Shown here: positions 5,890 to 32,195 of the stretch, piece by piece
How positions within the stretch are numbered: position 1 is the stretch's first letter
How the letters are laid out: the number at the start of each line of letters is the position of its first letter
From: Verrucomicrobiia bacterium
GTDB lineage: Bacteria > Verrucomicrobiota > Verrucomicrobiia > Limisphaerales > UBA11358
Assembly (NCBI GenBank): GCA_036511615.1
Contig: DATCBW010000116.1
Span: 1-53,200 of the forward strand
Direction: 5' to 3'
DNA length: 53,200 nucleotides
Translations under genes and position numbers: made by a program
Notes under the pieces: model-generated
What the model was told of the DNA's origin: nothing
The model's input: the letters and a program-made list of their open reading frames with translations, nothing else
Database searches by the model: none

Positions 5890-7290
5890 ATGAACCTGAC
5901 AGAACTTTTAGACAGCTCCGCCCGCCGCTGGCCGCGAAAAACCGCGTTCGTCGAGGACACCGCCGAAATTTCCTACGCCGCGCTCGTGGAGAAAATGAAT
6001 TCGTTTGCGGAAAAATTAAAATCCCTCGATTTGCCGCCCGGTTCGCGCGTCGGCCTGTGTTTTACGAACTGCGTCAACTACGTCGCGCTCACTTACGCGT
6101 TCTGGAAAATCAACGCCATCGTCGTTCCCGTCCCCACCGAATGCCCGCCGGAAGAGCTGAATGAAATCGCCGCGACGATGGAACTCGCCGCCATCTTGAG
6201 CCAGAAACCGCTCGCGCAAAGCGAACCGCTCGCGCCGGAAATTTTTTTCACGCGCCTGAAACTTGCAGCGCCGCCGGACAATCACGGCCTCAACATCGCG
6301 TTCATCCGCTTCACGTCCGGCACCACTAACGCGCGCAAAGGCGTCGTCCTCTGCCACGAAACCATCCGTGACCGCGTCCTCACCGCGAACAAGGCTTTTC
6401 GCATCACGGAAAACGACACCGTCATCTGGTGCCTGCCGATGGCGCATCATTTTCTCATCACCATCGTTCTGTATTTGAACGTCGGCGCGACCGTGGTGCT
6501 GGCGCCGCACGTCACCGCCAAACCGTTTCTCGAAGCCGTCAATCACTGGCGCGGAACAATTCTCTACGCTGCGCCATTTCATTTCTCGCTGCTCGCGCGC
6601 GACCAATCCGGCGCGCAGATCCAAAACGTCCGCCTCGCCGTCTCGACAACGTGTTCGCTGCCGCAGGAAGTGGCGCAGGAATTTTTCAAACGCTTCGGCA
6701 AACCGCTCGTCCCCGCGCTCGGCATCATCGAACTCGGCCTCGTCGCGCTCAACACCGAAGACCCGTTGAACCGCTGGAATTCCGTCGGCAAAATCGCCAC
6801 GGATTTTCAAGTGAAAATCCTTTCGCCCGTCGAACACGGCGTCGGCGAAGTGGCCGTGGCCGGCCCCGGCATCTGCGACGCCTACGCCGCGCCGTGGCAG
6901 CCGCGCGAACAGATTTTGCGCGACGGCTGGTTCGTCACCGGCGACCTGGGCCGTTTCGACGCCGACGGATTTTTGTTTCTGCTGTCGCGCACCACCGCCG
7001 TCATCAATCTCGCCGGGCGGAAGGTCTTTCCCGAAGAAATCGAGGCCGTGCTGAACCGCCATCCGTCCATCCGCGAATCGCGCGTGTTTGGCCGCGTGCA
7101 TCCGCACCTGGGCGAAGTCGTCGAAGCGGAAATTGTTTTGTCTGCTGAAAACGCCAGCATCGAAAATCTTTCACACTTTTGCCGCGAACATCTGGCGTCC
7201 TATAAAATTCCCACGCGGTTTCACGTCGTTCGGGAATTGCCGCGCACGCCGGTAACTGGCAAAATCCGCCGCGTGGCCGCCACGGCCTGA
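5890..7290 (+). CDS. AMP-dependent acyl-CoA/acyl-ACP synthetase (ANL superfamily, fatty-acyl-AMP-ligase-like)
   Basis: The adenylation core motifs are present: FTSGTTNARKGV, WFVTGDLG, GRKVFPEEIE and a C-terminal ..TPVTGKIRR. An ACP gene follows 1 nt later. Confidence 0.85.
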   Translation: MNLTELLDSSARRWPRKTAFVEDTAEISYAALVEKMNSFAEKLKSLDLPPGSRVGLCFTNCVNYVALTYAFWKINAIVVPVPTECPPEELNEIAATMELAAILSQKPLAQSEPLAPEIFFTRLKLAAPPDNHGLNIAFIRFTSGTTNARKGVVLCHETIRDRVLTANKAFRITENDTVIWCLPMAHHFLITIVLYLNVGATVVLAPHVTAKPFLEAVNHWRGTILYAAPFHFSLLARDQSGAQIQNVRLAVSTTCSLPQEVAQEFFKRFGKPLVPALGIIELGLVALNTEDPLNRWNSVGKIATDFQVKILSPVEHGVGEVAVAGPGICDAYAAPWQPREQILRDGWFVTGDLGRFDADGFLFLLSRTTAVINLAGRKVFPEEIEAVLNRHPSIRESRVFGRVHPHLGEVVEAEIVLSAENASIENLSHFCREHLASYKIPTRFHVVRELPRTPVTGKIRRVAATA

Positions 7291-7291
7291 T

Positions 7292-7546
7292 ATGATTCAA
7301 CCATCAGAAATCGAAACCGAACTGCTCGCGTTCCTGCGCCGCGATATTTTTTCGCCCGACACGAACCTCACGCCAGAAACCGATCTCGTCGGCGCGGGCT
7401 TCGACTCCATGTCGCTCGTGAAGACGCTGCTGCACGTCGAGACGAAGTTCGGCAAATGGATTCCCGAAGGCGAAATCACCGGCGACGCGCTCGCGAACAC
7501 CCGCGCGCTCGCCGCGACCGTCGCCCGCGTCCTCAATGAAAAATAG
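7292..7546 (+). CDS. acyl carrier protein
   Basis: 84 aa with the phosphopantetheine attachment motif GFDSMSLV. Confidence 0.8.
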   Translation: MIQPSEIETELLAFLRRDIFSPDTNLTPETDLVGAGFDSMSLVKTLLHVETKFGKWIPEGEITGDALANTRALAATVARVLNEK

Positions 7547-8867
7547 CGCGCCGTTCAACGGTTCGGACCAGCTCATGCGCGGGTTCGATTACGAACTGCG
7601 CCGGCACGGTTTCGCGGGCAACCAGTGCCAGATCATCCTCGAACTCGCTGGCGAAATTTCGCCGCCGGTTCTACAGCGCCGCCTTGCTGCGATGCAAAAG
7701 GAATTTCCGATTCTTAACGCACGTATCGGAAAAATTTTCAGGCCAAAATGGAAAATTCCGGCGGACGCCGGAAAGGAAATTCCAGTCCGTGTTCACCGCG
7801 ACTCACCAAGCCTGCGCCAGGAACTTTTCAACGAACCGCTCTGCGTCAGACGCGGCGAGCTGGTGCGTTTCGATTTGATTGAGCTTCGTAGCGGCGACTC
7901 GGCAGAGCGCCGCACTTCATCAGATGACGGCTTTCCGTCGAAAACCGCTACGCCGGCAAAAGCGGATTTGATTTTCACCTGGACGCATCTGCTGATGGAC
8001 GCCACCTCCGCCGAACATTTTCTCACTGCCGTCAGCGATGACAAAATTGTTTTGCCCCAAGCCAATCCACAGCCGCCGGGCGCGCCGGTAAAATGGCCGG
8101 AACGTTTCGAGCTGATGAAAAAATCCGTCGAGCAGCTCGACAAATTTTGCGAGCAACAACCGCGCGCGTTGAAAACCCGGCACGCCGGCGCGCCGCGCGA
8201 ATTGCAGTATCGCGTCGAGCAATTTTCGGCCGAGGAAACCGCGCGCGTCCGCGCCAATGGCACGCGGCTCTGCGGCGCGCTCGGCGGCGCGCAGTTTCAC
8301 GCCATTGTCGCCGCGCTCGAATTGCATCGTCTGCACCAGAAACTCGGCACCATGACCAAAAGTTATATTTTGCCGATGCCCGTCGGACTGCGACCCAAAG
8401 GCCGCATTGAACCGCTGTTCAGCAACCAGGTGGACATGCTCATGATGCAGTTTTTGCCGGAGCATCTGGAGTCGGTGGAGAAGGCCGTGACCGCGCTCAA
8501 GGCGCAGACGGCGCAGGCGCTCCGCGAAAATTCCATCAGCTACGGCCGCAAGCTTTCGGAACTGTTCAGCTTCCTGCCGCTCCCGATTTACATGGCCGTG
8601 CTGAAACACGGATTGAAGGGCGAAATCTGCTCCATTTTTTTTGGCGACACCGCCAACGTGAATCCGAAGCTGGAAAATTTTCTCGGCGTAAAGGTGGAAA
8701 ATTTCACGCATCTCGCCGCCGTTACGCCGTCGCCCGGTCTCGGCGTGATCTTTTATTATTTCCGCGGCGGGTTGCGCCTGTCGGTCGTTCACGCCAAAAC
8801 TGTTTTGGGCGAAGGCGAAGCGGCTGAATTTGCAATCGCACTCCGCCAGCGGCTCCTGAACCCATGA
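7536..8867 (+). CDS. HxxxD acyltransferase-like protein (condensation / wax-synthase-like superfamily candidate), paralog 1
   Basis: 443 aa. It overlaps the ACP gene by 11 nt. The motif WTHLLMDATSAEHF has H at 7986-7988 and D at 7998-8000. It is a clear paralog of 11816..13084. The family assignment is by motif only. Confidence 0.5.
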   Translation: MKNSAPFNGSDQLMRGFDYELRRHGFAGNQCQIILELAGEISPPVLQRRLAAMQKEFPILNARIGKIFRPKWKIPADAGKEIPVRVHRDSPSLRQELFNEPLCVRRGELVRFDLIELRSGDSAERRTSSDDGFPSKTATPAKADLIFTWTHLLMDATSAEHFLTAVSDDKIVLPQANPQPPGAPVKWPERFELMKKSVEQLDKFCEQQPRALKTRHAGAPRELQYRVEQFSAEETARVRANGTRLCGALGGAQFHAIVAALELHRLHQKLGTMTKSYILPMPVGLRPKGRIEPLFSNQVDMLMMQFLPEHLESVEKAVTALKAQTAQALRENSISYGRKLSELFSFLPLPIYMAVLKHGLKGEICSIFFGDTANVNPKLENFLGVKVENFTHLAAVTPSPGLGVIFYYFRGGLRLSVVHAKTVLGEGEAAEFAIALRQRLLNP

Positions 8868-8893
8868 TGCAAGCGCGACTAAAAATTAAGACT

Positions 8894-9050: not shown

Positions 9051-10124
9051 ATGAGCGAAAAATTTGACATCGCCGTCATCGGCAGCGGCGCGGCGGGCAT
9101 CGCCGCCGCAGTTTGCGCCGCACGCGCGGGCGGCAACGTGTTGCTGCTCGACAAAAATCCGTCGCCCGGCGGCACCGGCGGCTTCAGCGGCCTGACCACG
9201 CTTTGCGGGCTTTACGACGACGCGGGGGATTTTTTGAATGACGGTTTCGCCCGCGAATTTGCCACGGCGATTGCCGAAACCGCACCTTTGAAAACCGGAC
9301 GGCTTTGGGTGCTGCCGTATCGCCCGGAAAAATTCCGTGGTGTGGCCGAAGATCTTTTTGCCGCCAGCTCAAACCTGCAAACGCGTTGGAACACGCCGCT
9401 CGAAAATGTCGTTGTCGAAAATGGCCGGATCGTATCGCTGACCGGTTTTCAAGTCGGAGCAGTGATTGATTGCAGCGGCACGGCGGAAGTCGCGCGGGCC
9501 GTTGGCGCGGAATGTCTGGAAACGGATGAATCCACTCAAGCGCCGGCCGTGGTATTTGCGCTGCGCTGCGTGACGCGGGAGATCAATTCGCCCGCCGATG
9601 CCGCGCGCATTCTGCTGCCGGTCATCCGTGCGGGCTTTCCCGTGCTGAATTTCCATTTCAACCTCGAAGCCGGCGGCATCACCGCAAAATTTTCCGGCTC
9701 GCCGGAACAGGTGCCGGCGCTTATCGAATTTTTGCGCAAAAACGTGCGTGGCTTTGAAAATTGCGTGTCGCCGCAGAAGGAATTTTCCGTTTCGCGCCGC
9801 GCGGGCCGGATGATTGTCGGCGAATATGTTTTAACTGGCGCGGACGTTCTGGGCGCGAATAAATTTCCGGACGCCGTGGCGCGCTGCGCGTGGCCGATTG
9901 AACAATGGAGCGCGGACGGCAAAACGAAATTGCGCTGGCTGCCGCCGGGCGAACATTACGAAATTCCCGCGCGCTCGCTGCGGGCGGCGAAAATCAAAAA
10001 TCTTTTCATGGCCGGCAAGACCATCAGCGCCGACATGGACGCGATCGCCAGCGCACGGGTGATGGGTTGTTGTCTGGCGACGGGTGAAGCGGCGGCAAAA
10101 TTGGCTGCAACGTCTATGCGGTAG
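9051..10124 (+). CDS. FAD-dependent oxidoreductase (FAD_oxidored-like)
   Basis: It has an N-terminal dinucleotide-binding motif DIAVIGSGAAGIAAAVCAARAG..LLLDK and a C-terminal ..GKTISAD..ASARVMG.. typical of this flavoprotein group. Confidence 0.65.
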   Translation: MSEKFDIAVIGSGAAGIAAAVCAARAGGNVLLLDKNPSPGGTGGFSGLTTLCGLYDDAGDFLNDGFAREFATAIAETAPLKTGRLWVLPYRPEKFRGVAEDLFAASSNLQTRWNTPLENVVVENGRIVSLTGFQVGAVIDCSGTAEVARAVGAECLETDESTQAPAVVFALRCVTREINSPADAARILLPVIRAGFPVLNFHFNLEAGGITAKFSGSPEQVPALIEFLRKNVRGFENCVSPQKEFSVSRRAGRMIVGEYVLTGADVLGANKFPDAVARCAWPIEQWSADGKTKLRWLPPGEHYEIPARSLRAAKIKNLFMAGKTISADMDAIASARVMGCCLATGEAAAKLAATSMR

Positions 10125-10183: not shown

Positions 10184-10205
10184 ACTTTTGAGGACGAGCA
10201 GGATT

Positions 10206-11456
10206 TTAGCGAATCATCATCGCCTCCGGATTTTCCTGTTTCGCGCTGTAATTGACCACCCAGCGCAACATGCCGAGGCTGAAGTTGGAGTTGGACGCCG
10301 CGCCGGTAAAAACTTTGGCGAAATGGTTTCGATACCAAGGCGACATGAGCCGCACCCAGGGATATTTCATTTCCATCCGTTCGCCGACGACGACGGAATT
10401 GAACAGCCGTCCGTCGTAGAAATACTCCGCGATCTCATGCCAGCATTGCAAGTGATGCGTGTTTTCCTGCTCGTAACGCTTGAACGCGCTTTCCGAGCCT
10501 TTGCCAATGGCTTCGGCCAGCAGCACCGCACCCTCCATCCCGGTGAGCAGGCCGCTGGAAAACACCGGGTCCACAAATCCCGCCGTGTCGCCGACCAGCG
10601 CCCAGTTGCCGCCGAACATCCGTTCCGACACGAGCTGGTAGTTCGTGTATTCCAGCACCGGCGTCAGGCGTTTCGCCTCGCCCGCGACTTTCATCAGGAC
10701 GGAATCCTGTTTCAGCAAATTATCGAAGCGTTCCTCCTTCGTCGCGCCGAATTTCGGCAAATGTTCCGAGCCGATGACCATGCCGACGGAAACGCGGCCC
10801 GGCAACGGAATCCGCCAGCTCCAGCCGTGATCGAGCCGCGTTGTGTGAACGTGGCCTTCGTAATCGAGCGCCGTGCGGTCAACGTGCGCAAACAGCGCCG
10901 CGTCCTTGCGCCCGCCTTCGCGCGCAGAAATGCCGAGCAATTTCGGCAACAGCCGCACGCGGCCCGTCGCGTCCACAATCAAATCCGGCTGGCCAGAGAA
11001 GAAATTTTCCGTGGCGGCGAGCGATGCCTCGCTCAACCTGACGTTCTCCGTGCCGGGAATTTTTTCCACGTTCGCCGGGGCTTCGATTATTTTCGCGCCC
11101 GCCTTGCGCGCTGCGGCCAGAATCGTGTCGTCGAACTTGTCGCGCGGCACGTTGTAGGCGTAGGTCGGCAGCGGTCCGCGGATGTTGGCGAACGGAAAGG
11201 AAAAATTTACCGACTCGCTCAAATTGATCGTCGCGCCGGGCTTGAGGAGACTATAGCCGCGCACTTCGTCCTCCACGCCGAGCTGCCGCAAAATTGGGAT
11301 GATGGCCGGCACGAGCGATTCGCCGACAATGATCGGCGCGCGCTTGGGCAGATGAAAAATGGCGGTGCGGATTTTTTGCCGCGCGAGCAGCGTCGCGAGG
11401 GTGCCCGCCGCCGGTCCGCCGCCGAGGATGGCCACGGTTCTGATTTTGCCGTTCAT
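10206..11456 (-). CDS. flavin-dependent halogenase (paralog 1)
   Basis: 416 aa. Motifs: GxGxxG (ILGGGPAAG), PKRAPIIVGESLVP (lysine plus GES motif, as in carrier-protein/phenol-type halogenases) and WxWxIP (WSWRIP, 10806-10823 on the minus strand). Confidence 0.7.
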   Translation of the reverse strand: MNGKIRTVAILGGGPAAGTLATLLARQKIRTAIFHLPKRAPIIVGESLVPAIIPILRQLGVEDEVRGYSLLKPGATINLSESVNFSFPFANIRGPLPTYAYNVPRDKFDDTILAAARKAGAKIIEAPANVEKIPGTENVRLSEASLAATENFFSGQPDLIVDATGRVRLLPKLLGISAREGGRKDAALFAHVDRTALDYEGHVHTTRLDHGWSWRIPLPGRVSVGMVIGSEHLPKFGATKEERFDNLLKQDSVLMKVAGEAKRLTPVLEYTNYQLVSERMFGGNWALVGDTAGFVDPVFSSGLLTGMEGAVLLAEAIGKGSESAFKRYEQENTHHLQCWHEIAEYFYDGRLFNSVVVGERMEMKYPWVRLMSPWYRNHFAKVFTGAASNSNFSLGMLRWVVNYSAKQENPEAMMIR

Positions 11457-11612
11457 GTTGCGGAGGGAGCTTAATGGCCGGCGGCGATGAAAACAATTTC
11501 GGAAATTGCCGGAGCGCGAGTTGTCCCAACTCGCAGCGCTTCCGACCGGGCTGGCCGCTGCGGATTGGGAACAATCCGCGTTCCGGCAAAAAAATCGTCG
11601 CTTCGAGGTGGT

Positions 11613-11711
11613 GTCCTAATTTGCGGGGCGCGGCATTTATGCCGCTTCAGCACCCGCATTGATTTGATTGTTGAAGCGGGCTGAAGCCCGCGCTCCGAGT
11701 TGAATTAGGTC
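11613..11711. repeat. palindromic intergenic element (inverted pair of CGGRGCGCGG-hairpin-GCTTCA units)
   Basis: The outer arms are gtcctaatt and aattaggtc. The inner units are cggggcgcgg-catttatg-ccgcttca and the reverse-oriented tgaagcgggctgaagcccgcgctccg. Confidence 0.6.
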
Positions 11712-11815
11712 AACTACCCGCTTCGAGACCGGATTGACAATGCTGGCGAGGCTACTAACCTGTTCGCAGCTTCTGACATGAACATCTGCACCTGCGGGTT
11801 CCACATTTCGGTTCG

Positions 11816-13084
11816 ATGAACGCTGACCGGCCACTCGACGGCTGCGATTACTTGATGCTCGCCTTCGACCACGAGTTGCGGCGTCATGGCTATGCGGGCA
11901 ACTCCTGCCAGATCATCCTCGAACTGGCTTCCGCGATTTCACCCGACGCACTGCGCCGACGGCTCGACGCGCTGGCCGGGCAATGTCCGGTTCTGGGCGC
12001 GCGCGCCACGGGCGTCATCCGGCCCCGATGGAAAATTCCCGCCAAAGCCACAGCCCCCAAAGTCCGTGTTCACCGTGAAGATGCGGAACTTTTAACCCGT
12101 CTGATCAACGAGCCGTTGGACGTGGAGCGCGGCGAACTGGCACGCTTCGACCTCATCGAAGTTGACGGCGGCCGGATGCGCGTCATTTTTACCTGGGCGC
12201 ACGCCTTGATGGACGCACACAGCGCGGAACATTTCATCGCCGTCGCTGGCCGCAACGAATTGCCGCTGCCGGCGGCGGACTTTATTCCATTGAAAAAACC
12301 GCAGATGCCCTTGAAGGCGCGGCTGAAGGGCACCTGGAAAAATCTCCGTGCCTATCATGAATTCCGCAACGTCGCGCCGCGTTCGCCTGGACGGCGTCAT
12401 CCCGTCGCGCCGAAACAACAACTGTTCCGCGTGGAAAAGTTTTCCGCCGCCGAATCCGCGCAGGTTCGCGCCCACGCCACGAAGCTGGCCGGCGTGTTCG
12501 GCGAGGCGCAATATCACGCCGCCGTCGCCCTCATCGAACTGCAAAAGTTCCAGCAGCAACTCGGCTGCCCCAGCCCCAGTTTCGTTTTGCCCGTGCCGGT
12601 CGGAATGCGGCCCAAGGGCAACGTCGAACCGCTTTTCAGCAACCAGGTCACGTCGCTGCTGCTCCAGCTTCTGCCCGGCCAGTTGGAATCCGTCGCCACC
12701 GCCGTTGCCACTCTCAAAAGCCAGACCGCGCACGCGATGCGTGAGGGCATCGTGGAAGGCTGCGCGTTCTTCACGGATTTTTTGCGGGTGGTGCCGCGCC
12801 CGGCCTACATGGCGTTCATGCGGCATGGCTTGAAAGGAGAAATTTGCTCGTTGTTCTACGGCAACACCGCCGCCGTCAGCCCGCTCGTCACCACTTTCCA
12901 CGGCGCGGCCATCGAGGATTTCACCCACAACGCCGCCGTGCCGGAACTTCCAGGACTAGGCGTCATCTTCTACCAGTTTCGCGGCGAACTGCGCGTCACC
13001 ATCGCGCATTTGGCCGAGACGCTGGATGAAAGCGAGGCCGCGCAGTTCGCCTCGGCCTTGCGCGCCCGGCTGCTTAACCCATGA
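11816..13084 (+). CDS. HxxxD acyltransferase-like protein, paralog 2
   Basis: 422 aa, alignable end to end with 7536..8867. Both start ..DxLMxxFDxELRRHGxAGNxCQIILEL.. and both end ..ALRxRLLNP. The motif WAHALMDAHSAEHF has H at 12200-12202. Confidence 0.5.
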   Translation: MNADRPLDGCDYLMLAFDHELRRHGYAGNSCQIILELASAISPDALRRRLDALAGQCPVLGARATGVIRPRWKIPAKATAPKVRVHREDAELLTRLINEPLDVERGELARFDLIEVDGGRMRVIFTWAHALMDAHSAEHFIAVAGRNELPLPAADFIPLKKPQMPLKARLKGTWKNLRAYHEFRNVAPRSPGRRHPVAPKQQLFRVEKFSAAESAQVRAHATKLAGVFGEAQYHAAVALIELQKFQQQLGCPSPSFVLPVPVGMRPKGNVEPLFSNQVTSLLLQLLPGQLESVATAVATLKSQTAHAMREGIVEGCAFFTDFLRVVPRPAYMAFMRHGLKGEICSLFYGNTAAVSPLVTTFHGAAIEDFTHNAAVPELPGLGVIFYQFRGELRVTIAHLAETLDESEAAQFASALRARLLNP

Positions 13085-13155
13085 CGCCCGCGCGGCCTGG
13101 CGGAAAGCAAAGCGGCTGGCCTTGCGGCTGCATGATGGTTAAACTGCCGGCGCAC

Positions 13156-14402: not shown

Positions 14403-14546
14403 GGGAGCGCAGCCGCCCCGGCTGCGGTTCGGTGCGCCCTCGCGCCGAACATGAACGTGGTTACACCAATCAAACAAAATTCATCGCCGTCGCACAATGC
14501 CGACGACGAGGGCGTCGCCGGCTGCGCCCGAGGCGGGCGCGCTCCC
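14403..14546. repeat. about 144-bp palindromic intergenic element, same terminal signature as 8894-9039
   Basis: The left end is gggagcgc plus the hairpin gcagcc-gcccc-ggctgc (14403-14425). The right end is the hairpin gcgcccg-agg-cgggcgc plus gctccc (14524-14546), which is an inverted GGGAGCGC terminus. Confidence 0.7.
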
Positions 14547-14563
14547 TATTTTCAATTCCACGA

Positions 14564-20896: not shown

Positions 20897-20917
20897 AATT
20901 TTGTCATTAAAATACGC

Positions 20918-24670: not shown

Positions 24671-25179
24671 GATTTGGGCGCCTTGGTTTCGTCGAACAAA
24701 TCCGCCGGTTGCGCGCCAGGTTTGATTTCCAGAATCCGCAAATCCAGCTTGTAGCCGCCGCGATCAATCACAAAATGGTTCGGGTCCGGCATCGTGACCG
24801 GGCAGTCCAGCTTCGGCGTGCCGCCAAAAACGCACTCCACGTCGGCGGCCACGAGGCGGCGGATGTATCTCGCGGGAAACATCCGGCTGGATTGCATCAC
24901 AAAAACTTTCCCGTCCGGCTTAATCAGCAAATCAGCAATCACCTGGCCGAAATTTTCCGTGATGACAAGCCGTTTGCCGCCGGTTTCGCTCATGGCGAGA
25001 TAGCCGTTGAGCGCGAACTGCATTCCGCGTGCGCTGAACAGGGCGCGCTGCGTGATGAAGGCGTTCGCTGGGAAAAAACCTTTCGGAGGCGGTAAATATT
25101 GCGTTGGCGGCAGCGGCGGGCTGGCACAGCCAGCGAGCAAACAAATCACCAACGATAGGATAAAATAATTACGGCGCAT
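24667..25179 (-). CDS. lipoprotein, DUF3261-like
   Basis: It has a signal peptide with lipobox LLAGC. Its size and its position next to the LolA-like gene match the DUF3261 protein of APE-type clusters. The family call rests on context and recollection. Confidence 0.5.
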   Translation of the reverse strand: MRRNYFILSLVICLLAGCASPPLPPTQYLPPPKGFFPANAFITQRALFSARGMQFALNGYLAMSETGGKRLVITENFGQVIADLLIKPDGKVFVMQSSRMFPARYIRRLVAADVECVFGGTPKLDCPVTMPDPNHFVIDRGGYKLDLRILEIKPGAQPADLFDETKAPKS

Positions 25180-25861
25180 GATTCACGGCGGCCCGCACGG
25201 CGGCAATGGGCAGCGGTTTGGTTTGATCGAACGCGCCGGGCGGAAACGTCACGTTGCGCTTTTCGTTGTGAAAGATGATACGCGTCAGGTCGCCGTTCGG
25301 CTCATTCAGCACGACTTCGCGCGTCGCCGAAAAATCCGGTTCCAGGTGGATTTCAAACGACGACATCATTGAGCGCACGTTTTTGTCCTTCGGGGTCATC
25401 GTCACCACCGTTTCGCTGTTGGTCGCGAGCGACACGGAGAATTCGTTGGTCAGCGTGTCGAGCTGGCCCTGGTTCATCGCCGACATCTGCTGCATCACGC
25501 GCTGCAAAAGCTGGGGAAAACCGAGCTTCAACTTTTCCCACCTGCCGTCGTTGAACTCGAACTGCGCGACGGATTTCTGGTCGCCGAGCAAAATCGTCTG
25601 ATACGGCGCGGTCGTTTCCCAGCGGATTTTGTCGGGCCGTTCAATCAGCATCACGCCTTCGCTTTTCAGTGGCTCGGAAAATAATTTCAGCTCCCGCTCC
25701 TGCGTGAATTCCAGATACACGGTGCCGACCGAGGACATTTTATGCTGCAAAGCGTCCAGAATCGGGCGCGGATCGGCAACGGTTTGCAGCGTCGGTTCCG
25801 CCGAAACAGAAAATGCCGCGAACGCCGACGCGAGCAAAAAAATATGCGTGAGTTTCTTCAT
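25169..25861 (-). CDS. LolA-like outer-membrane lipoprotein carrier family protein
   Basis: It has a signal peptide (MKKLTHIFLLASAFAAFSVSA). Its about 200-aa mature part has the LolA-like pattern ..VYLEFTQEREL..SEGVMLIERPDKIRWE.. Confidence 0.6.
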   Translation of the reverse strand: MKKLTHIFLLASAFAAFSVSAEPTLQTVADPRPILDALQHKMSSVGTVYLEFTQERELKLFSEPLKSEGVMLIERPDKIRWETTAPYQTILLGDQKSVAQFEFNDGRWEKLKLGFPQLLQRVMQQMSAMNQGQLDTLTNEFSVSLATNSETVVTMTPKDKNVRSMMSSFEIHLEPDFSATREVVLNEPNGDLTRIIFHNEKRNVTFPPGAFDQTKPLPIAAVRAAVNHAP

Positions 25862-26610
25862 TTCAACAGTTCGTCCAGTCGCACAATTTCATAACCCAGC
25901 CCGCGCAGCGTGTCCAACAGCGATTTCACCGTCGCCAGCAGTTTTTCCGCCGGAATGTTTCCGTCATGCAGCAAAATAATCGCGCCCGGCTGGAGTCCGC
26001 GCGTGATTCGGGCGACAATTTTTTCCGGCCCGGCAATGACGGTATCCAGACTGCGAATCGTCCAGCCGATGACCTGCAAGTTCAGATTTCGCGCGGCGCG
26101 AAAGGTGCCCGGATTGGACAAGCCGACGGGCGGCCGGAAAAATTTTGGCGTGACGCCGGCAGCCTTTTCAATGACATCCTGCGTTTGCACCAATTCAGCT
26201 TGCAGCCGCGCGGCGGAATAGAAATTTGTAAAATTGCTGTGCGCGTAAGAATGATTTTCGAGCAGATGACCGTCGCGCACGATTTGCGCCGCGAGTTCGG
26301 GATTGGCCGTGACCTTTTTGCCGATGCAAAAAAATGTGGCGGATATTTTTTCTTTACGCAGAAGGTCGAGCAGTTGCAATGTCGAGCGCGGGTCGGGGCC
26401 GTCGTCGAATGTCAGCGCAACCTGCTTTTGGGAACTTGTGCCGCGACAGATAAAATTTCCAAACAGCCGCAGTTGCGGAACCGCCACGCCCAGGCCCATC
26501 ACGATCAACAGCGCCACTATCACCGCGTTTAGCAGGATGAAATTGTGCAGCGCGAGCGCCGCTGCTCCAAAAATCACCGCCAAAATTGCGACGACATGAA
26601 AACGGGTCAT
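25858..26610 (-). CDS. polysaccharide deacetylase (NodB homology domain) with N-terminal TM segments
   Basis: Motifs TFDDGPDP and ..NHSYAH.. are present. The ATG at 26610 overlaps the upstream stop (ATGA). The track start at 26673 would overlap the KS gene by 67 nt. Confidence 0.8.
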   Translation of the reverse strand: MTRFHVVAILAVIFGAAALALHNFILLNAVIVALLIVMGLGVAVPQLRLFGNFICRGTSSQKQVALTFDDGPDPRSTLQLLDLLRKEKISATFFCIGKKVTANPELAAQIVRDGHLLENHSYAHSNFTNFYSAARLQAELVQTQDVIEKAAGVTPKFFRPPVGLSNPGTFRAARNLNLQVIGWTIRSLDTVIAGPEKIVARITRGLQPGAIILLHDGNIPAEKLLATVKSLLDTLRGLGYEIVRLDELLK

Positions 26611-28796
26611 GGCTGGATGCAGCAAACGGCCTTCGCTCCGCGCTGGGACAGCGTGTATAACAGCATGCTGCATTTTTTTTCATGCGCCAGTTTCACCGCG
26701 AGGGAAAAGCCAAACGCCGACGCCGCGTGAAATTCGCCGCAGAGTTGCTTGTAAGTCTGGTGCTCCAGTTTTTTCCCGGCGCGCTCCCACAACGCCGCCG
26801 CGACCGCTTCATACATCGGCTCAAGTTGCCGGAAACCTTTCGCGCCGCTCATGAACACTTCAACTTTCGACAAGTCAACCGCCGATGCAATCCAGTCCGC
26901 TTCGCGCCCGGCGTCGAATGGTTTGCGCCAGCGTCCGAGTTTCACCGCCGTCACGCGCGCGAGCGGAGATGAAATTTTTTCCGCGTTTGTGATACTCGCC
27001 ACAACCGCGCCTTCGCCAGGCATGATCTTATCGTCCCATGCGCCCCAACGCTGGCCGATGCTCAACAGATATTTGTCCACCTCATCTGCGGCACCGACGA
27101 GCGCGCAGTCGGCTTCGCCGTTCGCCAACTGGGAGATGCCCTGCCACAGCGCGCACTCGAACGTGATTTCGCCGACGGTCGGCGCGGAATTCATCCCGCG
27201 CGCAGCCTGGTCAATCGCGACCTGCCCGGCTGGGGAATTGTGAACCGAATTCGGAAAGCGCGACGGCATCGGCTCGCGTTCGTCCTTGGCCACCAAATTT
27301 TCAATGAACGTGCCGGCGTCTTCAAGGCAGCCGAGTCCGGTGCCAATCGCAATGGCGACGCGCTGCGCCGGATCGGGTGCGTGGCTCTGGCGCGCGGTGA
27401 TGAGCGCCATCTGCTGCAAACGGCTCAAGCGGCGGCGCTGGTTGGGATTCAACGTCGTCGTGTCCAACGCGCCGCAACTGAACACGGGTCCCCGGCCGGG
27501 CGGCAACGGCGCGGTGATTTCCTTGATGACAACCGCGCCCGGCCCGATGACGCCGATGCCGCCGACGGCAATTTTTATTTTTTCCGGCACAACCGCCCGT
27601 GGCAAAGTTTCCGGCGTGGAAAAAATCAAAACGCCGTTGTTGCCGCCGAAGCCGAACGAATTGCTCATCACATGAGTCAGCGGCGCGTGACGCAGTTCCA
27701 CGACTGGTTCGAGGCCGATGGCCGGATCGCATTTGGTGAAGCCGGGATTCGGCGGCAGTTCCTGACGGCGCAGCGCCTCGATGCACACAACGGCCTCCAT
27801 CGCGCCGCTCGCGGCCAGCGCGTGGCCGAAAATCCGTTTCGTGCTGGAGAATGGCGGCACGCGGTTGTGAAAAACCGTCTTCAACGCGATGGTTTCCGCG
27901 ATGTCATTGTCGCGCGTGCCGGTGCCGTGGGCGTTGACGTAATCAATGGCGGACGGTTCGAGTCCCGCGCGACGCAATGCGGATTGCATCGCCATGGTCG
28001 CGCCCGCGCCCTGCGGATGCGGCGCGGTGGCGTGATACGCGTCGCAGCTCATGCCCCAGCCGCTCAACCGCGCGAGAATTTTAGCGCCGCGCCGCCGTGC
28101 ATTTTCTTCGGATTCCAAAACCAGAATCGCCGCGCCTTCGCCGAGGCTCATGCCGCCGCGCGTCGCATCGAACGGCCGGCAGCCCGCCGAATCCACGAGC
28201 AGCAGCGAATGAAAGCCGCCCCACGTCATCCGCGAAAGCGAGTCCGCGCCGCCCGCGAGCATCACGTCCGCCTCGCAGGACAAAATCATTTCCGCCGCCT
28301 GCGCAATGGCGAGCGCGCTGGACGAACACGCTGTCGCAATGGCCATGCCCGGTCCGTAAAGACCAAAGGAATCGGCAATGAAATCCACCGTGGTCGAACA
28401 TTCGTGAAAGCGCGTCGGCCGGGCGCGCATTTTTCCGCGCTTGATGAGCGTGGCGAGAAAAAGTTCGCTGTCATACGAACCGCCAACCGACGTGCCGAGC
28501 AGGATCCCGGCGCGGTCGCCGCTATTTTGAAAATTGATTTTGGCGTCGGCGATGGCCTCGCGCGCGGCGAGCCAGCCGAGTTTGTCGCTGCGGGAGCTGC
28601 GCGTCGGCACGCCAAGCGCAATCAGGTCGCGCTGGATTTCGCCAACGGGAATTTTTCCATAACGCGGCGATTGAAACAGCGTCAGCGGTTTCAGGCCGCT
28701 CGCGCCGGCGGCCAACATGCTCCACACTTCCTCCGTGCCGAAACCGGCGGCGGACACGATGCCCAAACCGGTGATGACTGGAGAGCGCGCGGCCAC
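26607..28796 (-). CDS. beta-ketoacyl-ACP synthase fused to a second KS-like (chain-length-factor-like) domain
   Basis: The N-terminal half has the Cys-His-His set (ATACSSS, NAHGTGT, GHALAASG). In the C-terminal about 300 aa, which is KS-fold-like (..GTGLGCLEDAGTF.., ..VGAADE..), I could not find the catalytic Cys. Confidence 0.8.
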   Translation of the reverse strand: MAARSPVITGLGIVSAAGFGTEEVWSMLAAGASGLKPLTLFQSPRYGKIPVGEIQRDLIALGVPTRSSRSDKLGWLAAREAIADAKINFQNSGDRAGILLGTSVGGSYDSELFLATLIKRGKMRARPTRFHECSTTVDFIADSFGLYGPGMAIATACSSSALAIAQAAEMILSCEADVMLAGGADSLSRMTWGGFHSLLLVDSAGCRPFDATRGGMSLGEGAAILVLESEENARRRGAKILARLSGWGMSCDAYHATAPHPQGAGATMAMQSALRRAGLEPSAIDYVNAHGTGTRDNDIAETIALKTVFHNRVPPFSSTKRIFGHALAASGAMEAVVCIEALRRQELPPNPGFTKCDPAIGLEPVVELRHAPLTHVMSNSFGFGGNNGVLIFSTPETLPRAVVPEKIKIAVGGIGVIGPGAVVIKEITAPLPPGRGPVFSCGALDTTTLNPNQRRRLSRLQQMALITARQSHAPDPAQRVAIAIGTGLGCLEDAGTFIENLVAKDEREPMPSRFPNSVHNSPAGQVAIDQAARGMNSAPTVGEITFECALWQGISQLANGEADCALVGAADEVDKYLLSIGQRWGAWDDKIMPGEGAVVASITNAEKISSPLARVTAVKLGRWRKPFDAGREADWIASAVDLSKVEVFMSGAKGFRQLEPMYEAVAAALWERAGKKLEHQTYKQLCGEFHAASAFGFSLAVKLAHEKKCSMLLYTLSQRGAKAVCCIQP

Positions 28797-28799: not shown

Positions 28800-29057
28800 T
28801 TATTGCGGACGTTTGGCCGCGATGAAGTCGGCCAGGGTTCTGACGGAGCGGAATGCCGGGCGGCCTTCCTCAATGTCCTTGATCACGATGCCGTAGTCTT
28901 TTTCGAGCAGCACGACGAGTTCGAGCGCGTCAATGGAATCGAGTCCCAGCCCGGTGCCGAACAGCGGCGCGTCGTCGTCAATCTGCTCCGGCGTGATGTC
29001 CTGCAGCTTGAGCGACTCGATGATTTTTGATTTTAGTTCGTGTGTTGAGATTTGCAT
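28800..29057 (-). CDS. acyl carrier protein
   Basis: It has the motif LGLDSIDALELV. I prefer the ATG at 29057 (MQISTHEL..), since the track start at 29099 would overlap the upstream gene. Confidence 0.8.
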   Translation of the reverse strand: MQISTHELKSKIIESLKLQDITPEQIDDDAPLFGTGLGLDSIDALELVVLLEKDYGIVIKDIEEGRPAFRSVRTLADFIAAKRPQ

Positions 29058-29062
29058 GGTGA

Positions 29063-29647
29063 TCAACCCGCTGATTTTGTTTGGGAAATTAACGCACAAA
29101 GCGCTTTCATGTCACGGTCAAATTCCCGCCATTCGCGCAACCCGTCAGCGCGATTCAAAAAAATCGCGCACGCCGTCGCCGACTGCGGCGATGAAATTAT
29201 TTCCGCGCAACCAACGGTGACAGCCTCGCAATAAACGCAAACGCAGCCGTCCGCGTCGCCGCGCCGGATGAAATCGGCAGCCTCGGCCAGCAAATTTTTA
29301 TCGTCGCCGACGAAACATAAATCCGGGCCGGTGAGACGAAAGTGAATTGCAATCTCACCGATCGCCGCGCTTGGCAGCGTGTAGGCAAACAGCGTCGGAC
29401 TCGGTCCGCCGACGCCGTTGCGGCCATTCCAAAAATTCACGTCGGTCGAAAGTGAACCCGCGCTGGCCGTGAGACAAATGCCGATGCGGTCACGCGCGAA
29501 TTCGTCGAAATTGATTTTCAGCGATGCGACGGCGAGCAGTGCCAACTGGCTTTGCAAATCCAGACGGCCAAAACGCTGGCCAAGTCGCGCCGATGCCAAA
29601 TCAGCCTCGGTCACAATACTTGCGGCGGCGATGGAAATTTTATTCAT
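29063..29647 (-). CDS. short KS N-terminal-like protein (chain-length-factor / ApeC-like KS partner)
   Basis: 194 aa resembling only the N-terminal half of a ketosynthase, with no active-site Cys motif (..ICLTASAGSLSTD.., ..AYTLPSAAIGEIAIHFRLTGP..). It overlaps the upstream KS gene by 8 nt. Confidence 0.55.
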   Translation of the reverse strand: MNKISIAAASIVTEADLASARLGQRFGRLDLQSQLALLAVASLKINFDEFARDRIGICLTASAGSLSTDVNFWNGRNGVGGPSPTLFAYTLPSAAIGEIAIHFRLTGPDLCFVGDDKNLLAEAADFIRRGDADGCVCVYCEAVTVGCAEIISSPQSATACAIFLNRADGLREWREFDRDMKALCALISQTKSAG

Positions 29648-30791
29648 GGCTTAAAATCAGCGCGCCGTTCATGCCGCCGAAACCAGTGTTGAGTTTCAAA
29701 GCATTTTTCAACCGCGCGGCGGGACGCGGCTCGCGCACAAGACTTGCCGGCGTTTCATCCGCCGCGCTGGTCAATCGCGGCGTGCCGGGCAGAAAATTTT
29801 CCTGCATCGCCAAAACGCAGCAAATCGTTTCAATCACGCCCGCCGCGCCGAGTGTGTGCCCCAACATTCCTTTCGCGCCGCTGACCGGCGGACATGTTTC
29901 GCCGAAAATGGTTTTCAACGCGAGTGCTTCCATCGCGTCGTTGTAGCTCGTGCCGGTGCCGTGCGCGTGGACAAAATCAATTTCACCCGGTGACAATTTT
30001 GCCGAGTTCAGCGCGGCGCGGATCGCCTGCGCCAGACCGGAGCCGTCGCGCGACGGGCCGGTGAGATGATTCGCGTCGTTGCTGCCGCCGAAACCGAGAA
30101 TTTTAATTTTGCTTTCCGGCGCAAAATCCTGACGGGCCAAAACGATGGCCGCACCCGCCTCGCCGGGACTCAAGCCGCAGCGCGCCGCATCGAACGGACG
30201 GCAGCCGAGCGGGTCAAGCGCCTTCAATGCGGTGAAACCGGCGACGACAAAGTCGGACAAACAATCCAGACCGACGACGAGAACGGCGTCCGCTTCGCCG
30301 CGCTGAATCAATTTTGTTCCCTGCTGAATCGCAATCAAACCGGAGACGCACGCGACGGAAACGGTTTGCACCGGGCCGCGTGCGCCGTGCGCAGCGGCAA
30401 GGTCGTCGGCGAGAAGGTTTGCCTGCAAGTGACGCCGCGCGGTTTCGGAGCAGGGACGGTTTTTTGAAATTCGCTCGAGCGCCTCGATGTTGGCCTTGGT
30501 GGTTGAAAGGACCAGGCCAGTCCGTTCGGCGGGGATTTGTTCCAAAAAATTTTGCGCGGAATCGCGGGCTTGCTTGAGCGCCTCGGTGGCTAAAAACCAA
30601 GCCGGATTGTCGGCGTCAAAATTTCTGGGCGCGGCACCGGCGATGTTCGATTGGAAGCGTGACGAACTGAATTTTTCCAATGGTCGCAGGCCGCTCGAAT
30701 TTTTTTGCAGGGCATCGAGCAGCGGTTCAATGCCGCAGCCGACGGCGGAAATCGCGCCGCAGCCGGCGATGACGACTTCCGTTTCACGCAT
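29640..30791 (-). CDS. beta-ketoacyl-ACP synthase (FabB/FabF-like)
   Basis: The catalytic motifs are VACVSG (Cys), HAHGTGT and GHTLGAAG. Confidence 0.85.
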   Translation of the reverse strand: MRETEVVIAGCGAISAVGCGIEPLLDALQKNSSGLRPLEKFSSSRFQSNIAGAAPRNFDADNPAWFLATEALKQARDSAQNFLEQIPAERTGLVLSTTKANIEALERISKNRPCSETARRHLQANLLADDLAAAHGARGPVQTVSVACVSGLIAIQQGTKLIQRGEADAVLVVGLDCLSDFVVAGFTALKALDPLGCRPFDAARCGLSPGEAGAAIVLARQDFAPESKIKILGFGGSNDANHLTGPSRDGSGLAQAIRAALNSAKLSPGEIDFVHAHGTGTSYNDAMEALALKTIFGETCPPVSGAKGMLGHTLGAAGVIETICCVLAMQENFLPGTPRLTSAADETPASLVREPRPAARLKNALKLNTGFGGMNGALILSHE

Positions 30792-31206
30792 ACAACGACA
30801 GTTCTCCTGACGCGACGGCTTGTCCGTCGCAAGAAATGGTTGCGCTGACCATCAGCATCGGGCCGAGACGTCTCGTCTCGCGGATTTCGATTTGCAGATT
30901 CTTTCCGGCGGCCGGACGCGACCGGATTTTGAAATTAGACGCCGCCACCAACATTCCGTTCGCGCCCGCGCCGCCGGTTTTTCCCGCGCCGGATTTCGCG
31001 CGCTGGCCGAGCGCGGCAGCGACGGTCTGCGCGACACATTCGACAAGCGCCGATTCCAGAACTTTTCCGTCGCTCACGGCAAAATCATTTTCGCCGAAGC
31101 AGGCCGTCGCCGTCGCGGTTTTCTCGTCACAACGCATCAGCGCGTTGACGAAACGCATGGGCGCGCGGTGCGGAATCAAATTCTTAATGTCGGCAGGCGG
31201 GGTCAC
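30784..31206 (-). CDS. hotdog-fold dehydratase/thioesterase (ApeI-like)
   Basis: 140 aa with the N-terminal motif IPHRAPMRFV, typical of FabA/FabZ-like or thioesterase-like hotdog proteins in these clusters. Confidence 0.6.
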   Translation of the reverse strand: MTPPADIKNLIPHRAPMRFVNALMRCDEKTATATACFGENDFAVSDGKVLESALVECVAQTVAAALGQRAKSGAGKTGGAGANGMLVAASNFKIRSRPAAGKNLQIEIRETRRLGPMLMVSATISCDGQAVASGELSLYA

Positions 31207-32195
31207 AATTTGTTCGGCGACGGACGCGCGGCCAGCGGCGTGGTTGATTGAGTTTTGCGGACTTCGCGTTGTGCAGCCGTGCCGGCGTTTTCCCAGAACG
31301 GGAAAAAATTATACCACTGGAACGGGTCGCGCCGGAGGACGGATTCGAGATCGCCGGCGAAATGGGCGGCGCATTTTTTCAGATAGGCGTCGCGTTCGTG
31401 GTGCGCGGGCATCTGCGGATGCTGCGGCGGAAAACCGAAGAAGCGGTAGCATCCGCCCGGTTCGCGGTGGCTGAAGACGTGCATCAGCGCCGCGCCCGCG
31501 ATGGACGCCATCACATAGGCGCCGATGGGAAACGACGCCACGCCGCCACAGAAAGGAATTTTCGCCGACGGACTGCCATAGGCGCGGTCGCCGAGCATGG
31601 CGACGACTTCGCCCCGGCGCAACGCGGCGACGAGCGGAATGGCGTCGGTCGGCGAGCCGGTGAGCGGGAGCAGGCGGAAGTTTTGCTTGGAAGCGCGGTT
31701 GAGCACGTCGCGGATTTTGGGCCGCTCGCGGTCGAAGCCGGTGATGGTGATCGGCACGTCAATCCGGGTGAGCAACTGGCCGGCGGCCTCCCAGTTGCCG
31801 AGGTGCGCGGTGAGCAGCAGCACGCCGCGCTTTTCGGCAAGGGCCGCGCGCAGATTTTTTTCGCCGTCAAACTGAAAGGTGAAATTCCGCCGGTTGCCGG
31901 CGAGGATGACTGTGCGGTCAATGATGGCGCAGCCAAAGGAATAAAAATGCTTGAACACGAACCAGCGGCGTTTCCACCACGACAGCGGGCCAAAAACGCG
32001 GCGGTGAAAATCCATCGTGGCCGGCACGTCGGGCGAGGCGAAGGAAAAATAAACCGCCGGAAAAACCGCCAGCGCATAAGCCGCGCGCAATCCCAGCACG
32101 CGGATGGCCATGATGAAAAACCAGATGCCCCAGCGCCCGCCGCGTAATTGGCCGGTGCCGGACCAGTGTTTTGTCTCGGAGTCGTGCGTATTCAC
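31203..32195 (-). CDS. lysophospholipid / lipid A biosynthesis (LpxL-HtrB-type) acyltransferase family protein
   Basis: 330 aa with an N-terminal TM segment. The central ..LLLTAHLGNWE.. matches the HxGNWE-type motif of the Lip_A_acyltrans family. It is the first gene of the minus-strand operon. Confidence 0.65.
   Translation of the reverse strand: MNTHDSETKHWSGTGQLRGGRWGIWFFIMAIRVLGLRAAYALAVFPAVYFSFASPDVPATMDFHRRVFGPLSWWKRRWFVFKHFYSFGCAIIDRTVILAGNRRNFTFQFDGEKNLRAALAEKRGVLLLTAHLGNWEAAGQLLTRIDVPITITGFDRERPKIRDVLNRASKQNFRLLPLTGSPTDAIPLVAALRRGEVVAMLGDRAYGSPSAKIPFCGGVASFPIGAYVMASIAGAALMHVFSHREPGGCYRFFGFPPQHPQMPAHHERDAYLKKCAAHFAGDLESVLRRDPFQWYNFFPFWENAGTAAQREVRKTQSTTPLAARPSPNKL

Follow-up and report, generated by a model that had tools for sequence, protein, structure and literature searches.

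A rearranged Verrucomicrobiota relative of the flexirubin, xanthomonadin, and aryl-polyene clusters with a probable aryl-polyene lipid product

The aryl-polyene (APE) family is the most widespread family of biosynthetic gene clusters in Gram-negative bacteria. To our knowledge, the full products of such pigment-lipid clusters are known from only a few Proteobacteria and Bacteroidota. In this study, we analyzed a stretch of DNA from an uncultured soil Verrucomicrobiia bacterium (GenBank assembly GCA_036511615.1, contig DATCBW010000116.1, positions 1 to 53,200), referred to at its full length of 53.2 kb as the window, and found 23 intact genes at positions 5890 to 32195, numbered here g01 to g23 in the order of their coordinates. 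This locus is probably the Verrucomicrobiota version of the type II polyketide synthase (PKS)-lipid cluster known for flexirubins, xanthomonadins, and APEs, with an aryl-polyene lipid as its product class. By analogy with those systems, the product is most likely a halogenated, methylated aryl-polyene lipid of the outer membrane. The locus opens no new category of biology; it is a rearranged relative of the flexirubin, xanthomonadin, and APE clusters. An earlier sequence-only reading had taken the locus for a single cluster of this type from a bacterium of the Planctomycetes-Verrucomicrobia-Chlamydiae group, which agrees with the Verrucomicrobiota origin of the relatives described below.

In the APE lipid of Xenorhabdus, three groups are attached to a glycerol-phosphate-GalNAc anchor: the aryl polyene, another acyl chain that is also conjugated, and a fatty acyl chain (bioRxiv 10.1101/2020.12.19.423268). 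Such a structure would account for the two ketosynthase (KS) systems, the two acyl carrier proteins (ACPs), the family 2 glycosyltransferase (GT2), and the several acyltransferases encoded here. The reference systems for flexirubins are those of Chitinophaga pinensis and Flavobacterium johnsoniae, both Bacteroidota; in the C. pinensis cluster (flxA to flxY), flxP to flxU encode a polysaccharide deacetylase, an acyltransferase, LolA, a glycosyltransferase, and an exporter, and FlxY is a characterized 4-coumarate-CoA ligase (PMC3992019). Xanthomonadins and arcuflavins, from Xanthomonas, Lysobacter, and Azoarcus, are halogenated (brominated), methylated APEs of the outer membrane (PMC3691225, PMC3949708). 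Xanthomonadin clusters include a halogenase (PMC3691225), and the arcuflavin clusters of Azoarcus include a halogenase, a polysaccharide deacetylase (ArcN), a methyltransferase, and a Na+/H+ antiporter (ArcG) (PMC3949708).

The 23 genes were established by listing and translating the open reading frames (ORFs), and families were assigned by Pfam and NCBIfam profile scans, in which the cut-offs are the curated ones of each model. The sequence-only reading had counted 26 genes; two of the 23 that we find are multi-domain fusions, namely, g09 (MMPL exporter, PlsC-type acyltransferase, and S-adenosylmethionine [SAM] methyltransferase) and g18 (KS and PF13723 domain). All ten start/stop overlaps listed previously are present (7536/7546, 15679/15682, 24305/24308, 24667/24670, 25169/25179, 25858/25861, 26607/26610, 29640/29647, 30784/30791, and 31203/31206), with one further overlap at 13081/13084, and the two tightly packed gene blocks converge at 21898/21916, where 17 nt separate the stop codons. 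The convergence had been read as that of two operons. This holds for the convergence itself but not for the left half as one single operon, since the halogenase gene g05 (10206-11456) lies on the minus strand within the otherwise plus-strand left block. A plus-strand ORF at 10188-11474 was rejected as a gene; it has no family match, and the minus-strand ORF at this place is the halogenase. Translation likely starts at 29057 for the ACP gene g19 and at about 14564 for the GT2 gene g08. Scans of the window for tRNA and Rfam families gave zero matches, and promoter and terminator scans gave no signal above background.

A Cryomorphaceae locus (L115) is a flexirubin cluster by NCBIfam, with FlxA at 777 bits (cut-off, 700) and FlxB at 394 bits (cut-off, 340). 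The gene order g23-g21-g20-g19-g18-g17-g16-g14-g08-g09 is identical in the window and in this locus, and the collinear block from acyltransferase to exporter also occurs in L114 and L125. Further likenesses to flexirubin systems are a ligase resembling FlxY and the presence in L115 of a halogenase and of homologues of the FadD-type ligase g01 (36% identical) and of the PF12831 flavoprotein g04 (32%). Homologues of the three-domain fusion g09, of the GT2-DUF2062 protein, and of halogenase g10 (44-50% identical, adjoining GT2 and MMPL genes) are grouped in Chitinophagaceae, and Verrucomicrobiota relatives of the locus hold a lyase of the tyrosine ammonia-lyase (TAL) type and a ketoreductase (KR) of the FlxB/ApeQ type. 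The locus differs from flexirubin clusters in that protein identities are only 25-58%, TAL and KR are missing in cis, g18 combines a KS with a domain resembling a chain-length factor (CLF), and the content extends to g03 and g06, which are condensation-family proteins that have an ACP of their own, to a C45/TPR protein that is part of the core, and to a DesA-like desaturase. The synteny, together with several curated profiles, places the cluster in the flexirubin/APE superfamily, and as judged from these comparisons the flexirubin cluster is a better match than the E. coli ape cluster. We found no close cluster with an assigned product, as the sequence-only reading had expected. Its list of components foreign to canonical clusters needs to be shortened: halogenase and NodB deacetylase are published in flexirubin- and xanthomonadin-type clusters, and the FadD-type ligase and the PF12831 flavoprotein have homologues in L115. 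For g03/g06 with their own ACP and for the C45/TPR protein, published clusters offer no characterized role.

We compared the ape cluster of E. coli CFT073 directly by BLASTP and hhalign. Like the ape clusters of E. coli and Xenorhabdus doucetiae (PMC8253772; bioRxiv 10.1101/2020.12.19.423268), the locus combines a type II PKS with lipid-assembly enzymes and an outer-membrane export set, and it holds homologues of ApeE, ApeF (weak), ApeO, ApeI, ApeP, ApeL, ApeD, and ApeM, with ApeJ split into g08 and g23. Of the components of the ape-family core, the ketosynthases, ApeE/ApeF-type ACPs, ApeI/ApeP-type dehydratases, and MMPL exporter with LolA-like carrier are all present, and a KR in cis is not. 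Unlike the ape cluster, the window lacks ApeQ in cis, ApeG, ApeK, and an ApeR-type KS; both of its KS are ApeO-like, each with a putative CLF; the ligase g07 is of the FlxY/PaaK type and not of the ApeH type; homology to ApeC or ApeN is not detectable in their counterparts; and halogenases, NodB, C45, condensation-family proteins, and a desaturase are added. Xanthomonadin and arcuflavin clusters, which were compared by description and not by sequence, share the halogenase, methyltransferase, glycosyltransferase, acyltransferases, LolA, exporter, and deacetylase, as well as an antiporter that has a counterpart at 4508-5836 of the window. They differ in having a XanB2-type chorismatase, which makes 3- or 4-hydroxybenzoate, and a KR in cis.

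Searches with g09, g10, g13, and g23 gathered more than 100 related loci, 79 of them via g23. The relatives are metagenome-assembled genomes (MAGs) of Verrucomicrobiota, mostly labeled Verrucomicrobiia, Limisphaerales, Pedosphaera, or subdivision 3. A 19-gene core, in which g01-g04 and g07-g09 converge on g12-g23, is syntenic in dozens of these MAGs; it is contiguous in L037 (a 117-kb contig) and nearly complete in L002, L004, and L005, with 60-94% protein identity. The remaining genes g05, g06, g10, and g11 are absent from all four of these loci, so the halogenases, the second HxxxD gene, and the desaturase are better described as accessory insertions into the core. The closest relative, whose C45 protein is 92% identical (L022-L024, L129, and L130), carries the accessory genes and has the same left flank and the same order from g01 to g13; in L009 and L010, both halogenases and the second condensation-family gene are grouped between g08 and g09. 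Co-conservation of the two blocks, which the sequence-only reading had proposed as a test, is the usual case: a g14 homologue adjoins g13 in 46 of 49 loci, and convergence of g09 and g12 is seen in at least 13 of 24 informative loci and, by way of g11-g10, in three more. By these counts, the two blocks belong together in a cluster that is modular and often shuffled. Comparison of the window with the 92% relative gave dN/dS values of 0.11-0.35 in all 13 comparable genes, accessory ones included, which indicates purifying selection on the four accessory genes (two halogenases, the second condensation-fold protein, and the desaturase). Because the locus recurs in dozens of independent contigs and its dN/dS is low, it is more than a chance arrangement. 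Several records with this Verrucomicrobiota-type cluster (L001, L009, L056, L080, L090, L092, L099, L103, L110, L085, L094, and L098) bear titles naming Bifidobacterium, Bifidobacteriaceae, Akkermansia, or Methylacidimicrobium and are probably mislabeled or mis-binned assemblies.

Nearly all domain calls of the sequence-only reading were confirmed by the per-gene profile searches. In the right block, which lies entirely on the minus strand, g23 (31203-32195) encodes an LpxL-family acyltransferase (Pfam Lip_A_acyltrans, E 2e-21) that is 29% identical to residues 247-550 of ApeJ, its C-terminal half (BLASTP). The next gene, g22 (30784-31206), encodes a hotdog-fold dehydratase with weak FabZ matches that is ApeP-like (hhalign 94% against ApeP, <1% against ApeK). 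Ketosynthase g21 (29640-30791), identified by Pfam, is ApeO-like (31% identical to ApeO by BLASTP), with PRK09185 as its best NCBIfam match (259 bits, under the cut-off of 407), and has the Cys-His-His residues. Its presumed CLF partner, g20 (29063-29647), is a short protein resembling a KS N terminus, with weak fabF and ketoacyl-synt matches and weak FabF matches only in the PDB sequence search; homologues that are 29-40% identical lie between KS and ACP in Bacteroidota loci. ACP g19 (28800-29099) is of the ApeE type (NCBIfam PRK09184, 80.7 bits; cut-off, 70) and 56% identical to E. coli ApeE (BLASTP). The fusion protein g18 (26607-28796) matches ketoacyl-synt, Ketoacyl-synt_C, and Ketoacyl-synt_2 in Pfam; it has the Cys-His-His residues, is 34% identical to ApeO (BLASTP), and ends in a CLF-like domain that scores 41.9 bits against PF13723 (cut-off, 25). 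Its halves are 42% and 28% identical to the separate KS and CLF ORFs in L115. A membrane-anchored NodB-family deacetylase, g17 (25858-26610; Polysacc_deac_1, E 1e-34), has 35-40% identical homologues at the same position in Bacteroidota flexirubin-type loci and published counterparts in FlxP and ArcN (PMC3992019, PMC3949708). The LolA-like periplasmic carrier g16 (25169-25861; Pfam LolA, E 2e-17) aligns with ApeL (hhalign 96%). Lipoprotein g15 (24667-25179; lipobox LLAGC) has neither a Pfam match at E <=0.01 nor an NCBIfam match; it is conserved in all complete relatives and stands beside the LolA gene as ApeN does. The block is completed by the ApeI-type dehydratase g14 (24305-24670; PF22818 ApeI-like, 32.4 bits; cut-off, 28.5; hhalign 98% against ApeI), the C45/TPR protein g13, which is taken up below, and the PlsC-type lysophospholipid acyltransferase g12 (21916-22617; Pfam Acyltransferase, E 1e-15), which is ApeD-like (hhalign 93.5%).

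The left block, on the plus strand apart from g05, opens with g01 (5890-7290), a FadD-type adenylating ligase of 466 amino acids (Pfam AMP-binding, E 1e-50, and AMP-binding_C) that is the nearest counterpart of E. coli ApeH (hhalign, 96% probability over 382 columns). It is followed by g02 (7292-7546), an 84-amino-acid ACP (PP-binding, 24 bits; cut-off, 20.8) that is ApeF-like, albeit weakly (hhalign 72% against ApeF and 18% against ApeE), and that overlaps g03 (7536-8867) by 11 nt. The FAD-dependent oxidoreductase g04 (9051-10124; PF12831, E 2e-64) is conserved in the Verrucomicrobiota core. Beyond the accessory pair g05 and g06 (11816-13084) lies g07 (13081-14376), a putative aryl-acid ligase of the FlxY/PaaK type (NCBIfam FlxY, E 5e-125) that is conserved in every relative covering that part of the cluster and does not convincingly match ApeH (hhalign 21%). 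The Pfam-identified GT2-DUF2062 protein g08 (14432-15682) is 38% identical to the N-terminal half of ApeJ (BLASTP) and 35-38% identical to Bacteroidota homologues. The fusion g09 (15679-19515), with 1,278 amino acids, was assigned by Pfam and NCBIfam as an MMPL/RND exporter joined to a PlsC-type acyltransferase and a SAM methyltransferase; it matches E. coli ApeM and ApeD (BLASTP), and its methyltransferase domain is of the O-methyltransferase type (PF00891 match). The last two genes of the block are accessory: the halogenase g10 (19559-20806) and g11 (20879-21898), a membrane histidine-box fatty-acid desaturase (FA_desaturase, E 4e-29; 166 bits against the DesA model, under the cut-off of 500) that was found only in the window and the 92% relative and has a dN/dS of 0.11.

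The two halogenases are flavin dependent (g05, NCBIfam CmlS-type halogenase, E 5e-29; g10, Trp_halogenase, E 6e-27) and 69% identical to each other. Both carry GGGPAA as the GxGxxG motif and GWSWRIP as the WxWxIP motif, and we take the Lys in (L/M)(L/F)KPGAT, placed by eye from CndH/PrnA alignments, to be the catalytic one. The best PDB matches of g10 are 8zop, ChlB4, PltA, Mpy16, CndH, and CmlS, and through these relatives both proteins resemble carrier-protein-dependent phenol/pyrrole halogenases; a literature search on 8ZOP, the best of these matches, turned up no relevant paper. Both halogenases of the window fall in one clade; the lyase-linked clade described below is not represented. In L066, L072, L106, and L107, g10-type halogenases are located beyond g23, away from the rest of the cluster. 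The divergent genes g05 and g06 enclose a SocA_Panacea (antitoxin-type) gene in the 92% relative (L129, 9364-9909), whereas in the window the interval between them is an empty gap of 359 nt (11457-11815).

Several observations weigh against the assignment to an aryl-polyene pathway or against particular roles within it. As the sequence-only reading had reported, neither a KR of the short-chain dehydrogenase/reductase family (Pfam and NCBIfam scans; tblastn with ApeQ was empty) nor an ammonia-lyase (no methylidene-imidazolone [MIO] motif and no PF00221 gene) occurs in the 53.2-kb window. The window also has no chorismatase, and its general Pfam and NCBIfam results include no KAS III-like or DarA-like gene, although no DarA or DarB reference sequence was used as a query. 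Without a KR, lyase, chorismatase, or DarA/DarB in cis, starter and acceptor are assigned by analogy for this genome. The ligase g07 matches the FlxY model at full length with 417.6 bits, which is under the equivalog cut-off of 520, and g16 scores 96.9 bits against LolA2_flexi, under the cut-off of 125. Both g18 and g21 score about equally against FabF and ApeO, and PDB sequence searches failed to set them apart from FabF. The lipoprotein g15 had been called DUF3261-like; this call is not supported, as hhalign against E. coli ApeN (DUF3261) gives 7%, in the signal-peptide region only. Likewise, g20 shows no detectable similarity to ApeC (hhalign 2%), and g03 is structurally closest to a dehydratase and not to an acyltransferase. 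In the 92% relative, genes g14-g23, which form the KS block, do not adjoin the other cluster genes. Finally, literature searches on Verrucomicrobiota returned only genome-mining mentions of flexirubin-type pigments or APEs and no product.

The relatives put the missing genes in perspective. In L037, a KR 45% identical to E. coli ApeQ lies directly upstream of the g23 homologue (tblastn), and an ApeQ/FlxB-like KR occupies this position in 30 of the 60 Verrucomicrobiota loci with enough upstream sequence. For the lyase, 38 loci have sufficient upstream sequence: 15 of them carry an aromatic ammonia-lyase with the MIO motif no more than 10 kb upstream of the g23 homologue, and 8 have neither gene nearby, as in the window. 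The lyase of L106 is a full-length PF00221 protein (E 1e-153) with a His-Leu pair at the selectivity position, which we take to mean specificity for tyrosine. Every relative's lyase is accompanied by a halogenase of a second clade, also with WxWxIP. In L106 (1-9600; also in L060, L066, L072, and L107), a divergent module that is absent from the window lies beyond g23 and encodes a methyltransferase, a g10-type halogenase, a 222-amino-acid protein, the second-clade WxWxIP halogenase, the aromatic ammonia-lyase, an amine-oxidase/CrtI-like flavoprotein, and a HEAT-repeat protein. Since relatives normally hold KR and lyase, the lack of both in the window points to a local rearrangement of the pathway; a differing chemistry, which the sequence-only reading had offered as one explanation, is less likely.

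With gene content, homologies, and synteny as observed, the order of steps, the substrates, and the product can be modeled on flexirubin and on the E. coli/Xenorhabdus APE lipid, and our confidence in the individual steps is much lower than in the product class. The starter would be an aryl acid, with 4-coumarate or a hydroxybenzoate as the likeliest candidates, that g07 activates and that is loaded on the ACP g19. The two KS/CLF pairs (g21 with g20 and the fused g18) would elongate it with malonyl units, and a KR of the ApeQ/FlxB type encoded elsewhere in the genome, together with the dehydratases g14 and g22, would create one conjugated double bond per unit. The halogenases g05 and g10 would add Cl or Br, and the methyltransferase domain of g09 would methylate the ring. 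An anchor lipid, perhaps a glycolipid or phospholipid similar to the glycerol-phosphate-GalNAc anchor of the Xenorhabdus APE lipid, would be built at the inner membrane by g08, g17, g23, and the PlsC-type g12 and middle domain of g09; here, g08 and g23 would jointly correspond to E. coli ApeJ, and the NodB protein g17 would expose the sugar amine. The ligase g01 and the ACP g02 may supply a second fatty or conjugated acyl chain, g03 and g06 may transfer or modify this chain, and the desaturase g11 may modify an acyl chain. The product would reach the outer membrane with the help of the exporter (MMPL) domain of g09, the LolA-like carrier g16, and lipoprotein g15. The C45 protein g13 may trim or transfer an acyl group; a periplasmic site for this activity is a guess from its N-terminal helix.

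The alternative that survives best, although we consider it unlikely, is that the product is a lipid with no aromatic ring. In this scenario, the KS/CLF proteins would extend a fatty-acyl starter loaded by g01 and g02 to a conjugated or polyunsaturated chain, such as the C26:5 chain of the APE lipid, which would then be halogenated, desaturated, and attached to an outer-membrane glycolipid. The window, with no lyase or chorismatase and with a membrane desaturase, would suit such a product, and the 8 of 38 relatives with neither lyase nor KR nearby show that its layout is shared. Moreover, g01 is closer to ApeH than g07 is, and g02 resembles ApeF, the ACP proposed to serve the non-aryl conjugated chain (bioRxiv 10.1101/2020.12.19.423268). 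Against this scenario stand a full-length FlxY-type ligase that is conserved in all relatives covering the region, lyase genes beside the cluster in 15 of 38 relatives, halogenases of the phenol/pyrrole class, which require an electron-rich ring, and a methyltransferase domain of the O-methyltransferase type (PF00891).

Still less probable is that the locus is a non-producing remnant, in which rearrangement removed the KR, the lyase, and the second-clade halogenase that flank g23 and left no means of making a polyene. The cluster is modular and shuffled among genomes, KR and lyase stand upstream of g23 in the relatives counted above, and a beta-lactamase-family gene sits at the KR position in the window. 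Nevertheless, all 23 ORFs are intact, the 13 comparable genes have the low dN/dS values given above, 8 of 38 relatives share the layout with neither gene adjacent, and the missing activity can come from the housekeeping FabG or from a KR gene elsewhere in the genome, of which the window is only one 53-kb contig. That the left block (ligases, condensation-domain proteins, GT2, and exporter) and the KS core merely lie side by side as two unrelated pathways that do not work together is highly improbable and is rejected by the synteny counts: the blocks are necessarily separate transcripts and stand apart in L022-L024, L030, L031, L038, L057, L062, and L007, but most informative loci have them next to each other, at protein identities of 57-92%. 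Each also needs what the other supplies, with ligase, GT2, and exporter encoded in one and KS, ACP, dehydratase, LolA, and the ApeJ C-terminal half in the other, and in E. coli as well as flexirubin locus L115 these functions are united in a single cluster.

Within the aryl-polyene assignment, three features were seen mainly in Verrucomicrobiota: condensation-family proteins that stand alone, a C45/TPR protein with a membrane anchor, and a lack of dialkylresorcinol genes among the family matches. The paralogues g03 and g06 are 49% identical. Neither has a Pfam family; g03 has no NCBIfam match either, and g06 has a weak PapA5 match. A sequence search of g03 against PDB chains gave nothing useful, so its placement comes from fold search only. 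Its AlphaFold2 (AF2) model (pLDDT, 81; pTM, 0.85) has the condensation fold, with a T-H-x-x-x-D-A motif, and Foldseek gave as the best match the dehydratase AzeD (8s6l; TM-score, 0.73), followed by the dehydrating condensation (C) domain of AmbE, TRI3, and C domains of nonribosomal peptide synthetases (NRPSs). AzeD founds a clade of stand-alone C proteins with a variable first His of HHxxxDG (bioRxiv 10.64898/2026.07.17.738954). Like AzeD, g03 and g06 are stand-alone proteins with a condensation-domain fold, and this His is replaced in them; they differ from AzeD in that identity is only 14% and in that their setting is not an NRPS but a type II PKS/lipid cluster that also encodes a FadD-type ligase and an ACP. 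Acyl transfer and dehydration are the candidate reactions. The g03 family comprises 445 detected homologues, mostly in Verrucomicrobiota MAGs, and the source names given are all "hypothetical protein." In L009, L010, and L129, g06 is found together with both halogenases. The other lineage-specific protein, g13 (22638-24308), is a membrane-anchored C45 Ntn acyltransferase/hydrolase with a C-terminal TPR region (Pfam AAT and TPR; NCBIfam C45_proenzyme NF040521, 196.6 bits; cut-off, 85). It has an N-terminal hydrophobic helix and a Gly-Cys-Thr site in AGCTAF that is a candidate for self-cleavage. It has more than 3,500 homologues, one of which (31% identical) adjoins FlxY-like ligases in a Bacteroidetes locus (L128); a sequence search against PDB chains gave nothing useful.

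We tentatively suggest that Verrucomicrobiota related to Pedosphaera and Limisphaerales may make an undescribed class of outer-membrane aryl-polyene lipid without a dialkylresorcinol, whose anchor would be an N-/O-acylated aminosugar built by the FadD-type ligase, the ACP, the condensation-family enzymes, NodB, and C45, and which would additionally be dihalogenated and desaturated in the lineage of the window. If so, g03 and g06 would represent a new functional clade of C-domain enzymes in a type II PKS/lipid pathway. More broadly, a large group of uncultured soil and freshwater Verrucomicrobiota holds a version of the cluster that is collinear with known ones yet distinct and whose modules (KR/lyase, halogenase, and KS block) shift from genome to genome independently of each other. 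It also contains conserved enzymes that have no characterized role in published clusters, namely, the stand-alone condensation-family proteins with their own ACP and ligase and the C45/TPR protein. Characterization of the product could provide a halogenated outer-membrane lipid for a phylum with almost no known natural products and a function for a family of at least 445 "hypothetical" condensation-fold proteins.

The genes on either side of the cluster are unrelated to it: to the left lie genes for a sugar ABC transporter and a Na+/H+ exchanger, and to the right come a gene for a lipoprotein of the beta-lactamase family and DUF1559 pilin-like genes. The exchanger gene (4508-5836, minus strand) lies left of g01, as in the 92% relative (L129, 2542-3813); exchanger genes also follow g12 in L030 (4902-5675) and L038 (4326-5525), where they are 30% identical, and g13 in L061 (75% identical). 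This recurrence at shifting positions beside the cluster hints at a functional link, and the arcuflavin cluster includes an antiporter, ArcG, as well (PMC3949708). On the other side, the gene at 32296-33570 (minus strand) encodes a protein of the class-C beta-lactamase/esterase family (PF00144) that carries SVTK and YSN motifs and a signal of the lipoprotein type; the gene lies 100 nt upstream of g23 on the same strand, at the spot where relatives carry the KR. LovD-type polyketide acyltransferases share the beta-lactamase-family fold. Homologues adjoin g23 in L050 (65% identical) and L058 (53% identical) and not elsewhere, and, kept in these two relatives only, the gene was rejected as a core member.

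Farther right, three successive genes at 34336-36795 (minus strand) encode proteins whose N terminus has a prepilin methylation motif. Two of these proteins contain DUF1559 (SBP_bac_10), a family typical of Planctomycetes and Verrucomicrobia, which agrees with the taxonomic placement. At 46002-48645 (plus strand), a URO-D-family methyltransferase-like gene lies near a gene for a protein with a B12-binding domain; the pair is similar to corrinoid-dependent methyltransferase systems and has no connection with the cluster. Two neighboring proteins of about 500 amino acids, encoded at 37182-40216 (minus strand), combine an N terminus with regions 2 and 4 of extracytoplasmic function (ECF) sigma-70 factors and a long extension at the C terminus, identified in one of the two as DUF3738; this is an unusual architecture for a sigma factor.

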